Program-made: the position numbers and the translations under genes
The notes under the pieces: model-generated
Told to the model about the DNA's origin: nothing
The model's input: the letters and a program-made list of their open reading frames with translations, nothing else
The model's database searches: none
In this document: piece after piece, positions 7,838 to 20,000 of the stretch
Numbering within the stretch: position 1 is the stretch's first letter
Layout of the letters: the number at the start of each line of letters is the position of its first letter
Assembly: GCF_024521635.1 (NCBI RefSeq)
Contig: NW_026250417.1
Span: 857,126-877,125, forward strand
DNA: 20,000 bases
Source of the DNA: Tricharina praecox
Lineage: Eukaryota
Direction: 5' to 3'

Positions 7838-8813
7838 TCATCGGCGCTGCCTATTCTCGGAATCCCGGTGCTTCCGCCCGCCGTGGTGCCGCTGCATCTC
7901 AACATCCTGCAAGCCCGCCTCGCCACCTGTGTAACCCTTCCGATCCTCCGACAGGATAACATTAGACGGGTGCACGAGGTTGAACAGGAACACCGCGGCG
8001 GCCATCAAGACAGCGTCGAAGATGTACAGCCAGACCTCGTTGCGCATGAGGTAGCCCTTATTGCCCTGGATATACTCGACGACCCTGAAGATGCTCCTGA
8101 CCATGATGAGGGCGGAGGCGCCATAGAGCACTCTCAGCAGGGTCAACCACCCGTTCTTCCCGCCGGTCTGCAGCGAGCTGGCGAGCACCGTCGGCTCGCG
8201 CACGATCTGCGTGTGGAACCGGATTGCGACCACCACGAACCCGCCAAAAAACAGCAGCTGCACGAATAGCCCGCCGAGAATCAGCTTCTGCCCCAGGTCC
8301 GCGGACTCCTCTGTCGCTTTGGCCATCATCCCGCCACCCCCGCCTTGCATCATGAACGAGAGCACGTCGCCAAGAACGAAGAATTTCGTCAGCCAGTTGA
8401 GCCGGATCATCGAGTGGTGCGCCGCATCGAGGTAGGCTATCAGGCGCCCTAGAACCATGTAGATCGAGGCTGCGAAGAGGGCCGGTGCTACGAGGAGGAG
8501 CAGCGATTGCATGATGTACGGCCCGAGATTCTCTTTGTCACTGTGCGACATTATCCGCCCAACGTATCCGATTGCCTCCACTGCGGTGGTGTTAGCCCTT
8601 TCACACATATACTCCATCGTGATGTTGAGGAGGGACCGGCGTACTCAAGGCGCCGATAAACATCGGTATGAAGTACCATGTCCGTGACCGGATAAGTTGG
8701 AATCCATGGGCAATTGTGGTAAGGGCGAAGATGACAGCGAATATCGCTGCAGCAACGATTGATGGTGTGTAGTAATAGAAGACGTATTTTTGTGGGACGA
8801 CTTCGGTGGACAT
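7838..8813 (-). CDS. RTA1-like (lipid-translocating exporter family) multi-pass membrane protein; 2 exons, 303 aa
   Basis: Exon 1 8813-8645, intron 8644-8581 (GTACGC...GCTAAC...CAG), exon 2 8580-7838. The spliced protein has RTA1-family motifs: YYYTPSIVAAAIF, GALMEAIGYVGR, PYIMQSLLLLVAPALFAASIYMVLGRLI, WLTKFFVLGDVLSFMMQGGGGG, GLFVQLLFFGGF, RSIFRVVEYIQG, EVWLYIFDAVLM, HP. Confidence 0.95.
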
Positions 8814-11324: not shown

Positions 11325-13083
11325 CGGAGCTGAAGACTCCCACCACCACCAAATCATCAAACCAGCAAATCAAGACCCACCCACTGCAGCAGTTTCCAAT
11401 CACATTTGGGAAAGATTCCACTAGTAAACGCTCGGTCGAACCCCCCGAAATGATAAAACTCGTGGCCTCGCAAAGGGGGTGCTCCTTTGAGGACTAAAAG
11501 GGAGGATGGCTTCAGCCTTCGGCGGTAAACGACAGGGCTTCGGATACGGACGGAAACTAGGAGGTAGGTAGTTATTCCCCAAGGGCTAAGGTAGACCTGG
11601 TATGTATGGGCTATCGCCGGCGCTGTCCCCTGGATCTTTTCAGCTGTGCCTCCGCGCTCGTTGAGTAGCCGTCGGGCACTTTCGCCGCAACGGCTAATGC
11701 CGCCGCCCGGGCCCCAAGCAATGGTCGAACCGGCAGATAAACCGGTTCTCCCTACTGCTCGATTCGTCCGGTGCATGGTGTGGAGGAGGGATGAGCAGCT
11801 GTCGGCGAGAGGAAACGGATGTAGTTAGTGTAGATGGTCAAGGCAGCCAGCGGGGAGGGAGCGAACTTGAGTGGCCTCTCTCGCTCTCTCTCTGTCTCTC
11901 ATCATCATCTACAGAATAGACCATCAACCTCTACCTCCTCTTTCTCCCTGTGGGTTCTCCTTTTCTCGACCGCTTTCCAGCCTGGGGAGGCATTGGCGAA
12001 AGAGCCCTCGCAAAAGTGGAACCAGCACAGAGCTACCTAGTCCATTCATCAGATACGGGCTCGAATTCGGATGGCTATGCCCCCACGATCGGTCCAGTTC
12101 AGTTTCGACTGAAAAATGAAGTTACTGAACCAGTATGCACCAAATTTAAGCAGTTGCGGCGATCTCGTCGGGCGTCTAGTCTGGTCTTCCGCCTCGACTG
12201 CGTTCAAGCTCCATTCTGTAGGTGATGGTTGTCGTCTTACATGCCCGATGCCGCTGAACCAACGCTCGAACGCAGGAACAGCCACAGTGCCAAGTGTACA
12301 CGATCCTCGGACCTCAAGGAAGAAGCCTGCCCCCTCTACCCCTTCTACTCCTAAGATTCAAGATCGACCCTTCCGTAGTTTCAACTTCAGAGACGACGCG
12401 GCGGCCCGTCTTGCGCGGTGAGCCCTGGGGTGGCCTTATGGTATTCATGTAAGCCACGGAAAACACCCTCAACTTCGCAACTTCACCACAGCGTCTCGGC
12501 CTCGCAACCGGCCAAAACGGTGACCGAGTTCTACCGTATTGAAACCCCCTCTCCGACTCCGAGCTCTTGACTCTTCGCGCGCGATATATCCTCCACAACC
12601 TCCCGGCACAGGCACGACTTAGCCGTCCTCCCCGCACCTCCCCGCTGCGGCGATGTGACGGCAACAAAACCGTCGGCCCTAGCTACCAGTGGTCTATGCC
12701 CGCCGCACGCCGCCGCACTCGGAAGGTTCTCTAAAGGAAGCTTCAACGTCATCGTTACGTTGCGTTCATTTTGAGGTAAAGTTACAGAGTTATAGTTTTC
12801 ACAAAGTTACCGTTTCACAAAGTCCAGAAGTTTCGATCCGACGCTGAGATTTAACTCGAGAAAACGTATGCCTAACCGTCTGGGCATATTTATGAAAGGC
12901 TATAACTCTCTCCAACTCCTTCCACTGTCCCCACCAACTGCTCTCACTGCTTCCACCCGCTGCTCCTCGCACCTGTACCCGCACCGACTCGCACCCGCAC
13001 CCGCAGCCGCACCCACTCACACTCGCACCCGCGCACCGTCACAATCCGTCCACGCCGCCCCGCATCCACGCCGCAACTCCGCA

Positions 13084-13560
13084 ATGAAGACGCCCACCCT
13101 CCTCTCGCTCCTCTCCCCACGGCGATGCGTGGCCGCTGCCAAGGCGCGCAGACGGAGCTCGAAGCCATGCAAACCATGCAACTCGTGCGTATCGTGCGTT
13201 TCGTGCGTTTCGTGCCCACCGTGCCCACCGTGCCCAGATTGCAAGCCGTGCAACCCATGCAACCCGTGCCAACCGAGCAAACCGAGAAACCCGTGCAAGA
13301 GCTGCGACCGCCCGTGCAACGTGCGCGACAGCGGCTACACAGTGATCCCCGAGGAGTATGTGGGCCAGGCAGGCGATGTCCCCGCTAGCTGGTGCAAGTG
13401 CTGCTTTGAGTGCGTGCTCATGCAGTCGATTGAGCTGGAACTGAGGATGGAGGATTTAAAGCTGGAGAGGGAGGGGCGAGAGGGGCGAGAGGGGCGAGAG
13501 GATGTCCAGACGGTTAAGAGGAGGATTACTGAGGCGGGGTGGGTGGAGGTGGAGGTGTAG
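13084..13560 (+). CDS. Cysteine-rich hypothetical protein with (XXC)n repeat, about 158 aa (the frame is open from the ATG at 12868, giving 230 aa)
   Basis: Single ORF with GC-rich third codon positions. It contains 12 consecutive XXC triplets (KPC KPC NSC VSC VSC VSC PPC PPC PDC KPC NPC NPC), further CxxC, a WCKCCFEC cluster and an acidic/charged tail. The 12868-13083 portion is low-complexity and UTR-like, so the second ATG is preferred; the start is uncertain. Confidence 0.6.
   Translation: MKTPTLLSLLSPRRCVAAAKARRRSSKPCKPCNSCVSCVSCVSCPPCPPCPDCKPCNPCNPCQPSKPRNPCKSCDRPCNVRDSGYTVIPEEYVGQAGDVPASWCKCCFECVLMQSIELELRMEDLKLEREGREGREGREDVQTVKRRITEAGWVEVEV
13162..13317 (+). repeat. 9-bp-period coding tandem repeat (NNNNNNTGC) within the Cys-rich ORF
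   Basis: Units such as AAGCCATGC, AAACCATGC, GTTTCGTGC x2, CCACCGTGC x2, AACCCATGC and AACCCGTGC; the period is a multiple of 3 and in frame. Confidence 0.9.
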
Positions 13561-13954
13561 GTTGGGATTGGGGTTGTAGGGGGGAAAGGCGATGGAGGTG
13601 GAGTGATTTGGCGCGTGGGATGAAGTGTCTATAGATGGTGATGGCTCTGCGATTTTTGCAATGAGTGTTGGAAGTTTGGTGTTCTTGTGATGATCAAGTA
13701 TTGGTCGAGATGGGAAGATGTTTGATGACAGACCATTGACGAGTCAATTCATATGTACAAATAAACAAAAGCAAACAAAGTCGAAAGCAATTAGTCTGAA
13801 GAAAAGACTAAACACACCCCAAACAAGAACATCAAATCGACCGCTCTCCTTGACAATGTCCCATACCACACTGCAACTCCCCACGAGCGCAGAAACGATG
13901 AATTGACCTAGTCATGCCACATCTCCCATTACTCACAGCGCCATACAAAGTTCC

Positions 13955-14377
13955 GGGACACACGAGGCCCCTTTCGTATCCACCGTAGAGCACACGAGGC
14001 CCTCCCATGGCTGAGCAACACGAGGCTCTCCCTGAGCACACGAGGCTCCCCACCAGAAGCAACACGAGGCTTCTACCATCCCAGGGCACACGAGGCCCCT
14101 GGAGCGCACGAGGCTCCGCACATCCCAGAGCTCACGAGGCTCTCCCTACTCGAGTCCACGAGACTCTCCCCGGGCAACACGAGGCCCGAAACCCTAAAGG
14201 GCAACACGGGGCCCTTCTTTCCTGAAGATCACGAGTCTCCGGAGCTCACGGGGCTCCCCACAACTTTGGCCGCTCGGGCTCACGGGGCCCGACGCGGCGT
14301 GAGCAGCACGGGGCTCGGATGGAGCAGCACGGGGCTCCGGTGGAGTTCACGAGACTCCATGGTGGCAACACGAGGCC
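13955..14377 (-). ncRNA. Candidate structured ncRNA (or ssDNA element): array of 18 stem-loops with conserved loop CYCGUG-N1-2 (N1-2-CACGRG on +)
   Basis: CACGRG cores at 13961, 13993, 14019, 14039, 14063, 14089, 14107, 14133, 14157, 14178, 14205, 14230, 14247, 14281, 14307, 14328, 14348, 14369. Each is flanked by a 3-6 bp inverted repeat whose sequence covaries, and spacing is irregular (17-34 nt). The repeats and hairpins are directly visible; transcription and strand are inferred. Confidence 0.65.
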
Positions 14378-14458
14378 GAGGTACAACCCGAAAGCAAGCT
14401 GTAGAGAGCACATCAGCATGAGCTCGAGCGCGATATCGAGGAGGGCATACCGCAAAAC

Positions 14459-14464
14459 TATATA
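14459..14464 (-). promoter_or_regulatory. Possible TATA box for a minus-strand transcript covering the hairpin array
   Basis: TATATA lies about 80 bp beyond the rightmost hairpin, with a CCAAT at 14496-14500 nearby. Short motifs, weak evidence. Confidence 0.25.
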
Positions 14465-17400
14465 CATGGCTCCTTAAAAACCGAATCGGATCGACCAATA
14501 ATAATTGACGACGTGACCTAGTGTCCATTAGCGTTGTTACCATCTTCCCCGCACCGAATCAACGAGTCACCTACAACTTTGCGTTCCACCACTCTTCCGT
14601 TCAACGGGATGCATCGAGTACTATCTCATTTAGTGGGCTTCCCTGGGGGGTCCACCACCTTTTCCTCCGCCGAGCACAATTATTTCGAAGGCGAATGCGA
14701 CGCGGATTGGATGCGGTTTCTGAAGCCGCGCCGCCAACAGTCAGTTCTGTTCCACAGTCATAGACCGTTTCACCATTCGCATCTGAGACTCACCGATGAA
14801 AAAGGATGAATGCGCCAACACAAATGAGAAAAGAGAGGGATATCGACAAATGCGGAGTCCAGCTCTGAAGGGTATCAGCTATTTCGCGAGTATCACAAGT
14901 ACTCGGACGTCCTAAAGATGGTATCGAAGCGACGGGGATCCATGCGTGGTATCGGTACGGTACGGTAAAGGCCTAGCAATGAAAGGGTATAGGTATGGTA
15001 CAGTCGAAATTATGAGGGTGATTACGGTGGACTCCGGAAGATAGGCCAGGTATTATTGCGGTAGAGGATCGCGAAAGTATAGCACGTCGAAGGAGTGGAA
15101 TGGCAGACGATCGGAAAGCTACGAAAGGGACATCGATCGAGTGCGCGGCGGTACGAATTAAACCTTAACTGGAAACCATTAGCCAACGAAAGAGGTCAGG
15201 AACACGACACGAACATACCTTTTTGCACGACTCGGTCGGCCCATGGCATCAGGTGCTCGGACGGGCATCAGTCGGTAATGATTTACGGGGAAGGCATTGG
15301 CGATACGGGGGGAGTGGGTTTAGCCGGGATGGCGATACCGATCAATCAGGGCGCGGCATTGGCAATTTACGTCTGGCAACGTTAGCGATACTGCGAAAAC
15401 AGCCGATGGGATGTCCGAGATTAAGCCTTACCAGGGTCACATTGTGCGAACGTAAGCCGGTCAGGGGTGTGGGGAGCTCGCTCGTCCGGGTTCGCTGCCG
15501 AACTTGCCGCCGCATACGAACAGCATCTTTACAGCGTCCTTGGTTCATCGGGCTTCGGAGGGCTCCTACATGTATCCCTAGAACATCGATTAGTCATAAA
15601 GCAATGCATGGAAAGGAATCAGCATACAAACTCGGTTGAGTGTCGTTGTACAGATCCGGAATGCACACATCGAATGTCGAAAGGCGGATTCACACATGGA
15701 CGAAAGCAAAACACACATGCTGCGGCAGTCATTAGTACCCCGTGAGGATACATACCAACGCTGCATCCGTGGTCAAGCATGGCGGCCCTCCTTGTCGATC
15801 CGACATTCTTTCCGACATCGAACCTATACAGTCAGTAGGCGGAGACCTACCGGGCATAGCCTCAATGGATGACCGGTGCGTTGGGTGGCAATGTCAGAGT
15901 CCAGTAGAACAGCCTTCGATTCGGCGTTGTCCATCCGGGATGGTACTGTGCTTCCAAAGTCAACGTAGAGAGGGTTTCATACGTTTCTCGCTCTTCCGTT
16001 CGGTGTTGAGTGTTGAACTGATCCCGAGCAGACAGCACGAAGATGTTAGTATATGATCCCGCGCCCAACACTGCACAGCTATCGCATCGCACCCCACTCC
16101 AGGGAACACATACGGATTTGGCCGGCGAAGACGAACACCTTTCCATGGGTGATAGGATTTGATGTGGTTCTCATTCGTAATCCTAAGAGCTCGAGCGTGT
16201 TTATCTAATACGTCTCAGCAACCGCTAACGTCGTGGACCTCCTGGCACTCCGCATGAGTGTGTCAACATACGCAAGTCCTTTAATTCCAATGCATGTCGC
16301 AATGCAGCTGACGATCGCGTGAACAGGTGAATCGAATGACGTCGATCCGGCAAGGGGGCGTATGGCTATCAAAGCCATCGCGAGAAACGAAGCGGGACAT
16401 GACGAGACGACAAAGGAGAATGAGAAGAAGAGGAAGAGGAATGCCTGCGAACGTGATAGGAAGGTGAAGGGAAAGTAAACGAGTGATGGAGAGTCTGTCG
16501 GGATGGTGGTTCACAACCCGCAGTTTTATACTGCTGGAAGCCCACCGCTTTCCACTTGCTACGAAACAATTATCACATCGCCCACCACCACCAGCAGCAG
16601 CACATGGTGCAGCGCATCATTCCCACGGAGGCGTCAGTCCTGGTGATGATGATGCCGATACCACACCACACGTGAGCCAAGAGCCAACCGCGGCACTGTG
16701 GTGGTGGTGTGAGGAGTGCGGTGCGACGTAATTCGTGCACATCCCACAGCTTCGCCAAAAGATGCCGCACGAGCTGGCCAATTGCAGCCGGCGCAAAACA
16801 GGGTTCTCCACTCGGATGCATCACGTAACGGGAAGTGGGTGTCGAGCGGAAACACGCTGATGAGCAAATGTCGTTGCTGCGATCGAGATTGCAACCTCAG
16901 GGGGTTTCTATTTTATTTTATTTTTGCCGAATTTCGGTGCCGTCACGCGATGACCACCCCACCTCGATTCTCGGCACAACCACCATCCTCGCAGCGGCGG
17001 CCGCTCAATGCGATGCCTTTCCGTCTCGCTGCCGACGGTGGCCGTTCCACTCAATGCGTCTCCTTCAACCCACAACCGCTATTGGTACAGTCAAGGTACG
17101 CATATAGTACCTTCGACAGCTAGGTACGTATAACCGGTACCAGAGCTGCGATGAGCTATAGCTCCACAGCTCCCAATCGACCCAAGACAAGCTTCGTGCT
17201 GCAGCCAAGACATACCAGCTTTTACCGCATCCGGTGCTCGCGGCCCCGGATTCTGCAACTGCGAACGATCGGCAGATGGGATCACCTCTCCTTGGTGGCA
17301 CCAGTTGTGCAAAGTCGGAACAGGTTTTGTGCGGCGACCAAGGCGCTACCCCGCATTTTGTCACACGACCCGTGCAGCGGAAGTGTGGGTCGCTAGTGGC

Positions 17401-18796: not shown

Positions 18797-20000
18797 TCAT
18801 AGTGTGTCTTGCCGTAGAGACTCCTCCGCGTCGATATCCTCCGTGAGTTGCCTCGAGATGCGGACCAGCTCCCCCTCCAGCTCCACCAACTTGTCGGCAT
18901 CCAACACTGGTATAGCCGGCGTATTCTCCATCCACAGCTCGCGCTCGGGACCTCCCCAAAACACCACATCCTTCTCCAGCGGCACCTCGATCTCCCACGG
19001 CTCATGCACCTTCCTGAACTTGACATCCGCTAGCTCCTTGATCTCCCTCCGCAGCCTCATGCGCGACTCCGACGCCTTCAACGCCGCCAGCGTCGTCTCC
19101 AGCGCCATCAATATCTCCTCCCTTAAGCGCTTCCCCTCGTCGCCCTCCCAGTCAAGTGCGTAGTACTCATCCGCGGCCTCATCGTGATACCTCCACCCGT
19201 CCTCACCCCGATGCACGCGTTTGCACCGCCCATCGAGCCTATCCTCCAGCGCGCGGCGACACCCGGCAATCTCTTGTGCATCGCCGAGCCCAGCCACGAC
19301 CAGGCACGCGCACAGCGAATGCATCAGCTCCCTCCACGCGTCCATCGTGAACGCGGTGCAGTCCTTACACGGCGCCCAGTTGCAGCGCTCGATGTTGTTC
19401 GCCAGCAGGCGGGCCGCGAACGCCGAAGACTCGGGTTCGTTCTTGGTGGCGAGCAGCGGGGAGAGCTGCAGGCGGCGGCGCCGGAGGTTTTTGGAAACCA
19501 TGTGCTCCATCCCCTTGTCGGCGGGAGTCGTGGGGTCCGCGCAGAAGCGCGCGAGGTAGGTTAGGTATTGCGAGGTGCGGCCGGACGCGGACATGGCGAG
19601 CTGCAGACGGGCGAGGTACTTGTTTACGAAGCCTGAGGTGGTGAAGCCAGAGGGGGCGATGCGGAGGAGGGAGAAGTCGTTGATCAGGACGCGCTCGATG
19701 CGAACGTGGTCGTCGAGGCGAGTGAGGGAGTCGAGGAGCCCATCAAGGCACTCTCGGACGAGGTCGTAGGTGCGGGATTTTCCGGCTTCGAGGTAGAGCT
19801 GGATCGCACGTTGGAAACAGTGCGCAGCGGGTCCAGGCTCTGAATGGTCGTTCAATAGGGTGACGCCAAATTCGGCATGGAAGGCGGCAGAAAGAAGCGA
19901 GTAGTTTTTGGAGACGAAGGAAGTGGGTTTGCGGAGGACATAGATGTAGTGCCACCAAAGCTCTTTGGAGAGGTGCTCGTGATCAGTGTTCGGGAATATT
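18797..20000 (-). CDS. Hypothetical protein, 5'-truncated by the window edge (about 400 aa visible), possibly helical/TPR-like
   Basis: The 352-aa ORF-track frame stays open upstream of 19855 to the window end (IFPNTDHEHLSKELWWHYIYVLRKPTSFVSKNYSLLSAAFHAEFGVTLLNDHSEPGPAAHCFQRAIQLY...). The segment AAFHAEFG...AAHCFQRAIQL looks TPR-like. The stop is at 18799-18797, convergent with the 184-aa gene. Confidence 0.8.
   Translation of the reverse strand, partial: IFPNTDHEHLSKELWWHYIYVLRKPTSFVSKNYSLLSAAFHAEFGVTLLNDHSEPGPAAHCFQRAIQLYLEAGKSRTYDLVRECLDGLLDSLTRLDDHVRIERVLINDFSLLRIAPSGFTTSGFVNKYLARLQLAMSASGRTSQYLTYLARFCADPTTPADKGMEHMVSKNLRRRRLQLSPLLATKNEPESSAFAARLLANNIERCNWAPCKDCTAFTMDAWRELMHSLCACLVVAGLGDAQEIAGCRRALEDRLDGRCKRVHRGEDGWRYHDEAADEYYALDWEGDEGKRLREEILMALETTLAALKASESRMRLRREIKELADVKFRKVHEPWEIEVPLEKDVVFWGGPERELWMENTPAIPVLDADKLVELEGELVRISRQLTEDIDAEESLRQDTL

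Follow-up and report, generated by a model that had tools for sequence, protein, structure and literature searches.

The array and its gene

The window (the whole stretch of 20,000 nucleotides that was analysed) contains on its minus strand a gene for a long non-coding RNA (lncRNA) at positions 13815..16483, which comprises nine exons and eight introns and yields a mature RNA of approximately 2.16 kb (about 2,164 nt). A TATA-box block (CAGTATAAAAC in the RNA sense; 16523..16533, minus strand) is located approximately 40 nt upstream of the 5' end of this RNA and is conserved in L060, one of three homologous loci (L031, L060 and L078) described below. The terminal exon carries an array of 18 predicted hairpins (13955..14377, minus strand), which we numbered U1 to U18 along the plus strand, so that their order in the RNA runs from U18 to U1; each consists of a stem of 3-6 bp, a loop of the form C-N-Y-G-U-G and 1-2 spacer bases. 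An upstream nineteenth hairpin, H0, is predicted in exon 6 (14887..14905, minus strand), where a 6-bp stem with the arms CGAGUA and UACUCG (RNA) encloses an array-type loop, CUUGUG, and a single A. Directly 3' of the array is a 26-nt block (13893..13918, minus strand) with a short palindrome inside it, which is identical in the window, L060 and L078 and differs by one change in L031.

The array sits between convergent genes. Among the surrounding open reading frames, the one at 7838-8644 encodes an RTA1-like protein with 100% identity to one recorded at NCBI under Tricharina praecox, and the nearest named relatives after it come from other Pezizales (such as Wilcoxina, Pyronema, Tuber, Sphaerosporella and Geopyxis). 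Pfam searches of the neighbouring open reading frames named only an RTA1-like and an amino-acid-permease family, and a Protein Atlas look-up of the open reading frame at 18797-19999 returned no family.

On the plus strand, the array is visible as 18 CACGRG cores spanning 13961-14374 (414 bases, all on one strand). The whole window holds 39 CACGRG words on both strands, relative to an expected 25.3 +/- 5.1, and 18 of the 39 fall within the array stretch. Inverted arms border all 18 cores, set off on one side only by 1 or 2 spacer bases. The minus-strand units, each followed by its limits, its core start and the length of its contiguous Watson-Crick run, are U1 (13955-13971; 13961; 1), U2 (13987-14003; 13993; 2), U3 (14013-14028; 14019; 4), U4 (14034-14048; 14039; 4), U5 (14055-14074; 14063; 6), U6 (14084-14098; 14089; 4), U7 (14101-14117; 14107; 5), U8 (14127-14143; 14133; 5), U9 (14152-14166; 14157; 4), U10 (14171-14188; 14178; 5), U11 (14197-14216; 14205; 6), U12 (14224-14240; 14230; 3), U13 (14241-14257; 14247; 5), U14 (14274-14292; 14281; 6), U15 (14301-14316; 14307; 4), U16 (14321-14338; 14328; 5), U17 (14341-14359; 14348; 6) and U18 (14364-14377; 14369; 3). 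In units 1, 2 and 12, the stem is broken by a single A.C (plus strand), beyond which pairing resumes. The Watson-Crick runs sum to 78 over the 18 units, whereas permutations that set the 5' arm of one unit against the 3' arm of another gave sums of 38.0 +/- 5.4 with a maximum of 63. As none of 20,000 such permutations reached 78, the array is real and far from a chance observation.

An earlier note, made from the letters of this DNA alone, had listed the 18 cores and the spacings between them, both of which we reproduced exactly, and its statement that every core is enclosed by its own stem was borne out by the permutation above. The limits it gave, 13955 and 14377, coincide with the outer limits of the hairpins that we found, and our recount agreed with it both on the loop-closing pair (A-T in unit 12, T-A in units 9 and 17, and C-G in the other 15) and on a unit spacing that is mostly not a multiple of three. 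The linkers, which it had called unrelated to each other, do drift and are the least constrained part of the array, but they are not featureless: they are pyrimidine-rich on the plus strand and hence purine- and G-rich in the RNA. Units U15 and U16 form a 21-bp tandem pair in the window.

Transcription, splicing and abundance

Parts of the region 13300-15000 were found in 23 public sequencing runs from 20 studies, with 14 of these runs on record as RNA. We placed the contigs of four runs (X1, X3, X4 and X6) on positions 12000-16500, and the locus was present in all four. Contigs of 2113, 1740 and 2166 nt from the metatranscriptomes X3, X4 and X6, respectively, join nine exons, and X1 gave thousands of pieces together with joints. 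All eight main joints read CT..AC on the plus strand and hence GT..AG on the other, so that the RNA is of the minus strand. The eight introns are 50-96 nt in length, start mostly with GTATGT, GTAAGG or GTGAGT, and contain branch sites resembling CTAAC, CTAAT or CTGAC.

In the order of the RNA, and all on the minus strand, exon 1 (16272..16483, from contig pieces) is joined at 16204/16272 to exon 2 (16114..16204), around which L078 also lacks intron sequence, and exon 2 is joined at 16017/16114 to exon 3 (15627..16017), the best conserved exon (0.71 identity to L060), which includes an unspliced intron-like block at 15720-15756. The joint 15576/15627 leads to exon 4 (15432..15576), 15372/15432 to exon 5 (15219..15372) and 15168/15219 to exon 6 (14794..15168), which contains H0. 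Exon 6 is joined at 14719/14794 to exon 7 (14573..14719, from spliced contigs), and exon 8 (14451..14515), bounded by the joints 14515/14573 and 14398/14451, is 65 nt in length, and the contigs show 65 letters between the pieces on either side of it. The array lies in the terminal exon, exon 9 (13815..14398; 584 nt; 0.67 identity to L060).

The 5' limit of the lncRNA is given by contig ends at 16431-16481 and by the start of the homologous transcript L078. At the other end, adapter remnants abut 13815-13818 in X1, X4 and X6, with no run of A between, and we placed the 3' end at these positions for this reason. The contigs span the whole array, and none is cut within it. The array thus belongs to a spliced minus-strand transcript, in which it takes up most of the 3'-terminal exon. 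The earlier note, for which silence of both strands would have spoken against a non-coding RNA, had supposed this transcription, and the spliced contigs from four runs confirmed it. Its reading of the locus as transcribed and non-coding stood, but it had left the strand open and missed the context of a terminal exon in a gene with eight introns.

The summed word depth in X1 was 2.0x10^5-8.1x10^5 per bin over 13812-16500 (11,336 contig pieces), and that over 12000-13660, in the neighbouring spliced transcript (12000-13749), was 106.7 in most bins and 65.7 in one. The lncRNA is apparently very abundant, far above the neighbouring gene, although summed contig depth is a poor measure of abundance. 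The identical transcript (0-2 differences) was present in libraries from soil, decaying wood and seawater, and this occurrence may reflect carry-over between libraries and not independent biology.

Homologous loci

A two-unit pattern scan of metagenome contigs identified at least 121 stretches, and we compared 120 loci with that of the window. Among the blastn matches listed, three of the 120 (L031, L060 and L078) were homologous, so that there are at least three homologues, and 117 were unrelated; the other CACGRG-dense loci of the scan proved to be period-9 collagen-like coding repeats and were set aside. L060 is genomic, and its alignment begins in the promoter (window position ~16846), covers the array and extends into the flank beyond it. 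The transcript contig L078 comes from another taxon and is 81-97% identical to L060 per block (3-19% difference); none of the eight introns is present in it, and its first base coincides with that of the contigs of the window. The introns are poorly conserved (0.39-0.65 identity). The alignment of L060, the splicing of L078 and the conserved TATA block indicate that the splicing pattern, the promoter and the array are common to at least four taxa.

The number of hairpins per locus varies from 15 to 22 in the homologues, relative to 19 in the window, with L060 and L078 carrying 2-3 extra units and L031 fewer. In L031, the pairing of U13 and U16 is lost, and several orthologous units depart from the pairing or the loop consensus; L060 and L078 include the variant loops CUUGUG, CCUGUG, CACGUG or UCCGUA. 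Individual units are, as judged from these sequences, dispensable.

Conservation of the stems and the loop

MAFFT alignment of the 18 units placed their length difference at the end and not in the spacer, and we consequently built a covariance model from the 11 units with a one-base spacer only, with which the two-base-spacer units score low. Searching both strands of 30,066 bases, this model gave 40 matches at E<=0.02 (9 in the window, 11 in L060, 12 in L078 and 8 in L031), all 40 of which fall within the four arrays, in the orientation of the RNA; the highest score elsewhere in the window was 9.0 bits. H0 is present in all four taxa, and the matches of the model at the homologous places in L078, L031 and L060 are weak. 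In an alignment of the pooled 40 units, which was fitted to the model and whose rows are related, 95.8% of 165 cells paired, relative to 79.9% when shuffled (0 of 500 shuffles) and at most 62% in slid controls, and all five pairs changed on both sides.

We also aligned orthologous units between taxa, using 15 of the 18 units, as U15-U17 are misaligned by unit gain and loss and were left out; U6, which sits one column off in L060 and L078, was kept, and this counts against pairing. In the 87 pairs of this alignment, 96.8% of 347 cells were paired, and eight pairs had changed on both sides, as compared to 2.4 +/- 1.2 in shuffled alignments (0 of 500) and 0-1 in slid ones. Because only four taxa were available and their units are related by duplication, these shuffle controls overstate the independence of the changes. 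The changes on both sides included G-C/A-U at pair 3 of U14 and pair 2 of U7, G-C/U-A at pair 3 of U11, A-U/G-C at pair 3 of U1 and, in U8, G-C/C-G at pair 4 and A-U/G-C at pair 5. Three pairs contained a wobble intermediate in the RNA: pair 2 of H0 is U-A in the window and L031, U.G in L060 and C-G in L078; pair 5 of U14 is C-G, U.G or U-A; and pair 6 of U5 is A-U, G.U or G-C. Read in the sense of the RNA, each of these three two-step paths has G.U as its middle stage.

A rival pairing, between the 3' arm of each unit and the 5' arm of the next, fared worse: 81.4% of its cells paired, from the shared consensus, with no double changes and with substitutions that break it. Internal cells that are not Watson-Crick showed a weak strand bias, with 6 G.U vs 2 A.C in a hand count of genuine units and 6 vs 6 in an automatic count that included spurious hairpins. 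Taken over the four taxa, compensatory and wobble changes preserve the predicted hairpins. This extends to orthologues the covariation of the arms that the earlier note had seen among units, and a covariance model, which it had recommended building from all 18 units, matched only the four arrays at E<=0.02, on the RNA-sense strand; sequence kept without pairing, which it had named as a contrary outcome, was not what the orthologues showed.

In the window, the RNA loop is C-Y-C-G-U-G, and the consensus over the taxa is C-N-Y-G-U-G followed by 1-2 unpaired bases. Over 60 cells, the loop letters were C57 at the first position, U43/C14/A3 at the second, C53/U7 at the third, and G60, U60 and G59 at the fourth to sixth. 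Invariant columns made up 79% of the stems, 80% of the loop core, 61% of the spacers and 56% of the linkers, where 113 of 202 columns were gapped. Across the four taxa, positions 1 and 6 of the U6 loop read C-G, C-G, U.G and U-A, and this one unit suggests that these positions may pair to leave a C-G-closed N-Y-G-U tetraloop with a 3' bulge of 1-2 bases. A closed tetraloop with a 3' bulge is a shape typical of hairpins recognised by proteins.

Folding predictions

Folded singly, each of the 18 units was predicted to form a hairpin, which used the unit's own arms in 17 cases (U2 was shifted), at -3.5 to -10.1 kcal/mol with a mean of -7.0. The minimum free energy of the whole 584-nt exon on the minus strand was no better than that of shuffled sequences (z = +1.06), 85 of 100 of which folded at least as well, and global folding of the exon failed to recover the hairpins: the mean probability of the proposed stems was 0.16 globally and 0.40 when the span of a pair was limited to 40 nt.

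Proposed function and its alternatives

Because the stems are kept by compensation and the apex is invariant, and because the linkers and the number of units drift, we propose that each hairpin is a candidate site for one trans-acting reader, likeliest an RNA-binding protein, and that the RNA would be a high-capacity decoy or scaffold. We put the probability of this reading at roughly 0.6. The transcript, which runs from 16483 to 13815 on the minus strand, is made from a TATA-box promoter and loses its eight short introns. Its terminal exon presents 18 short GC-rich hairpins, and exon 6 the nineteenth, with the same apex C-N-Y-G-U-G; in the proposed mechanism, each would offer one predicted site for the same trans-acting factor, most probably a sequence- and shape-specific RNA-binding protein. 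From this it would follow that the RNA acts as a multivalent platform that either titrates the protein away from other RNAs, as a sponge, or concentrates it, as a scaffold, with a capacity of ~19 sites per molecule multiplied by a very high copy number.

The hairpins could instead be functional RNA elements other than a protein sponge, whose loops pair with another RNA (through the complement CACRNG), or which serve as a stability or localisation module or as sites of modification or cleavage. A conserved structure with an invariant loop would fit any trans-acting reader, whether RNA or enzyme, and the defined 3' end, where adapter abuts 13815-13818 and a run of A is absent, hints at unusual end formation. 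However, a loop of 6 nt would pair weakly, and its position 2 varies freely; Dicer-type processing would need stems longer than 3-6 bp, and contigs cross the array uncut. An Rfam family match was also absent, and we regard this alternative as unlikely.

We also considered that the array might be a neutral palindromic minisatellite in a functionless transcript, with its arms renewed by unit duplication and by hairpin-templated repair or conversion of quasi-palindromes. The duplication and loss of units (the U15/U16 tandem of 21 bp, the 2-3 units more in L060 and L078, the fewer in L031) and the unremarkable global folding energy would agree with this. Duplication, however, cannot explain the pairing, because orthologous units at fixed positions change both arms in single lineages (eight pairs), and conservation is far stronger in the asymmetric loop core than in the linkers. 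Neutrality is likewise at odds with the conservation of the host RNA in its intron positions, its promoter and its exon blocks, and with the G.U stage that three of three two-step paths show in the sense of the RNA; a minisatellite of this kind therefore seems improbable.

The host RNA is non-coding. If it were a protein-coding or small-peptide mRNA, with the array as a regulatory region in its 3' UTR, its coding part might be one of its short ATG open reading frames, the longest of which are 96, 62 and 58 aa in the spliced lncRNA, and hairpin arrays in a 3' UTR would act as cis-regulatory sites just the same. However, no reading frame is conserved between the lncRNA of the window and its homologues: the first ATGs of the window differ from those of L060 and L078, an indel of 19 nt follows a shared ATG, and the orthologues differ by indels whose lengths are not multiples of three. 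Stop-free runs reach at most 99 codons in the spliced lncRNA (2,162 nt) and 94 codons in the L078 transcript, and a tblastn comparison of the two showed similarity alike in all three frames. Introns downstream of a short open reading frame normally trigger nonsense-mediated decay, and eight of them would predict decay here, yet the RNA is apparently very abundant, as judged by summed contig depth. In addition, two independent contig sets, together with the conserved TATA box, fix the 5' end. An mRNA is accordingly a very improbable identity for this transcript. Two other candidate coding frames were discarded: a plus-strand frame at 13912-14421 (169 stop-free codons), which is antisense to the exon and in which most units are not spaced by multiples of three, and minus-strand frames through the array, which meet stops inside it.

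That the array is a DNA element, either a transposon subterminal repeat or a cluster of sites bound by a dimeric transcription factor, is hardly credible. The units are near-palindromic and lie between convergent genes, but dimer sites would conserve the half-sites and leave the spacer free, whereas in this array the invariant part is the asymmetric centre and it is the arms that change together. All 18 units have the same orientation in an exon of an abundant RNA at the same place in four taxa, and neither terminal inverted repeats nor a transposase, signs of the known transposon repeat that the earlier note had raised against itself, were found nearby among the open reading frames or by Pfam.

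Comparison with known families and systems

Rfam gave no match at the gathering threshold over the whole window, none at E<=1 on 12500-17000 and none on the three homologues, in line with the earlier note, which had not recognised a described fungal RNA family here. A literature search on fungal and Pezizomycetes lncRNAs, repeated stem-loops and the loop motif found no description among the titles listed, and the available parts of PMC8216456, PMC5863371 and PMC3778014 describe no such RNA. On these searches, the lncRNA of this pezizalean cup fungus is previously undescribed, and we read it as a new structured family with a known multivalent logic.

As expected of a multivalent decoy or scaffold, the transcript is non-coding, abundant (by summed contig depth only) and holds many copies of one element, namely 19 hairpins at this locus and 15-22 at the homologous ones, with the loop letters G-U-G in 59-60 of 60 cells. 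RNAs of this design include the bacterial small RNAs CsrB and RsmZ, which present GGA loops on many hairpins and bind CsrA/RsmA. They share with the lncRNA many short hairpins with one conserved loop on interchangeable stems, a number of units that varies among relatives, and high abundance, from which the capacity for titration comes. The lncRNA differs from them in being a spliced eukaryotic RNA of 2.2 kb with a CNYGUG loop and a TATA-box promoter, owing to which it is presumably a product of RNA polymerase II, and it has no sequence or Rfam relation to them; membership in the CsrB/RsmZ families was rejected, as the GGA loop motif was absent from the 60 cells and the curated covariance models were unmatched.

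Among eukaryotic lncRNAs, NORAD in mammals and meiRNA/sme2 in fission yeast titrate Pumilio and Mmi1, respectively, and meiRNA places the titration principle in use in fungi. Like the lncRNA, these are abundant, contain ~15-25 copies of one element and are proposed decoys or scaffolds for one RNA-binding protein. Their elements are linear (UGUANAUA and UNAAAC), whereas that of the lncRNA is a covarying hairpin in a gene with eight introns; the Pumilio UGUANAUA and Mmi1 UNAAAC motifs occur once each in the lncRNA. The A-repeat of Xist, with 7-9 units and U-rich linkers at the 5' end of a 17-kb RNA, also resembles the array in its tandem GC-rich, hairpin-forming cores and variable linkers within an lncRNA, and it is read by one protein; there is no sequence likeness between the two, and the lineage and the partner differ.

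Short stem-loops with a conserved apical loop starting with C are also found in the IRE, which has a six-base CAGUGN loop and, five pairs further down its 5' arm, a bulged C, and in the Vts1/Smaug element, which has a CNGG(N) loop on a stem. The IRE contains a C-G pair inside its loop, as is possible between loop positions 1 and 6 of the array. The array loop is one base longer than that of the IRE and lacks the 5' bulged C, and we rejected an IRE identity given loops of 7-8 bases, stems of 3-6 bp without a 5' bulge, a single CAGUG located outside the array and the absence of an Rfam IRE match. A Vts1/Smaug recognition element was rejected because CNGG requires G as the third loop base, where the 60 cells had C in 53 cases, U in 7 and G in none. 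The earlier note had already judged the loop to be unlike either element. Two other non-coding identities fared no better: a snoRNA host gene does not suit introns of 50-96 nt with 0.39-0.65 identity and an absent snoRNA or other Rfam match, and for a fungal telomerase RNA, CCCTAA, as the template for the telomere repeat assumed in this lineage, occurred 0 times in the mature RNA and Rfam was unmatched.

The decoy or scaffold reading is best phrased as a new structured lncRNA family in Pyronemataceae with ~19 putative binding sites. More tentatively, the lncRNA might be the first known member of a lineage-specific family of abundant, intron-rich lncRNAs of the Pyronemataceae or the wider Pezizomycetes that serves as a eukaryotic counterpart of CsrB, soaking up an RNA-binding protein and thereby setting a post-transcriptional regulon; were this so, the same hairpin would be expected on target mRNAs.

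To our knowledge, lncRNAs whose structure shows evolutionary covariation are seldom seen in any eukaryote, and we know of very few fungal lncRNAs that come with a mechanistic handle. The present locus offers several, in the form of one motif in 19 copies, compensatory support for the stems, conserved splicing and apparently very high expression, and this combination makes the titration or scaffolding hypothesis directly testable. A partner, if found, would establish CNYGUG on a short stem as a new RNA-recognition code and would show that hairpin-array sponges, known from bacteria, had an independent origin in fungi. Independently of its function, the transcript is a possible marker of carry-over where it appears in unrelated metatranscriptomes.

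Conserved blocks in and around the lncRNA

The region upstream of the lncRNA (16484-16900, minus strand) contains three blocks that are conserved with the genomic metagenome locus L060: a TATA block (16523-16533), a block containing CACGTG (16666-16678) and a 23-nt block (16808-16830), all on the minus strand. Conservation of these promoter blocks hints that expression of the lncRNA may be regulated.

Within exon 3 we identified a 37-nt intron-like block (15720-15756, minus strand) with the arrangement GUAUGU ... UACUAAU ... CAG, which is conserved near-perfectly in both L060 and the homologous transcript contig L078. Despite this conservation, mature RNA contigs from both species keep the block unspliced, and it could either act as a decoy signal for splicing or be a very short intron that is subject to regulation. 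Shortly after the hairpin array lies a 26-nt conserved block with a small palindrome (13893-13918, minus strand), identical in three of the four taxa and with one change in the fourth, which could serve as an end-formation signal or as an additional binding site.

Composition and evolution of the array

The terminal exon (13815-14398, minus strand) is G-rich in the RNA sense (G 211, C 148, U 144, A 81). As the array linkers in this exon are mostly purine runs containing GGG or GGGG in the RNA sense, the hairpins might face competition from G-quadruplex formation or from a factor that binds G-tracts. Units U15 and U16 (14301-14345) are a recent 21-bp tandem duplication found only in the window's lineage, and the extra array units in L060 and L078 differ from this duplication. 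Evolution of the array proceeds through gain and loss of units.

Occurrence of the transcript and its neighbour

The spliced lncRNA transcript (13815-16481) was present with 0-2 differences in the metatranscriptomes X3, X4 and X6, which are labelled wood decay, soil and seawater. At one and the same transcript end, X4, X6 and a further RNA sequencing run, X1, carry remnants of Illumina adapters. The presence of the lncRNA in these libraries is more suggestive of a super-abundant RNA carried over from one library to another than of ecology.

A convergent neighbour gene produces a spliced plus-strand transcript (12000-13749), with an intron at 12218-12275 in an X1 contig; in the RNA contigs, 66 bases separate its contig end from the lncRNA 3' end. 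Its cysteine-rich open reading frame (12868-13560, plus strand), which matched no Pfam family, is made up of 9-bp tandem repeats (CxxC-type runs).

Specificity of the motif scan

The two-unit pattern used to scan metagenomes for CACGRG units also matched GC-rich coding repeats of period 9 in unrelated contigs, where they form collagen-like Gly-X-Y tracts (among the matches listed, L011, L096, L066, L090, L001, L021, L039, L101 and others). Such repeats constitute a false-positive class for later scans using this motif.
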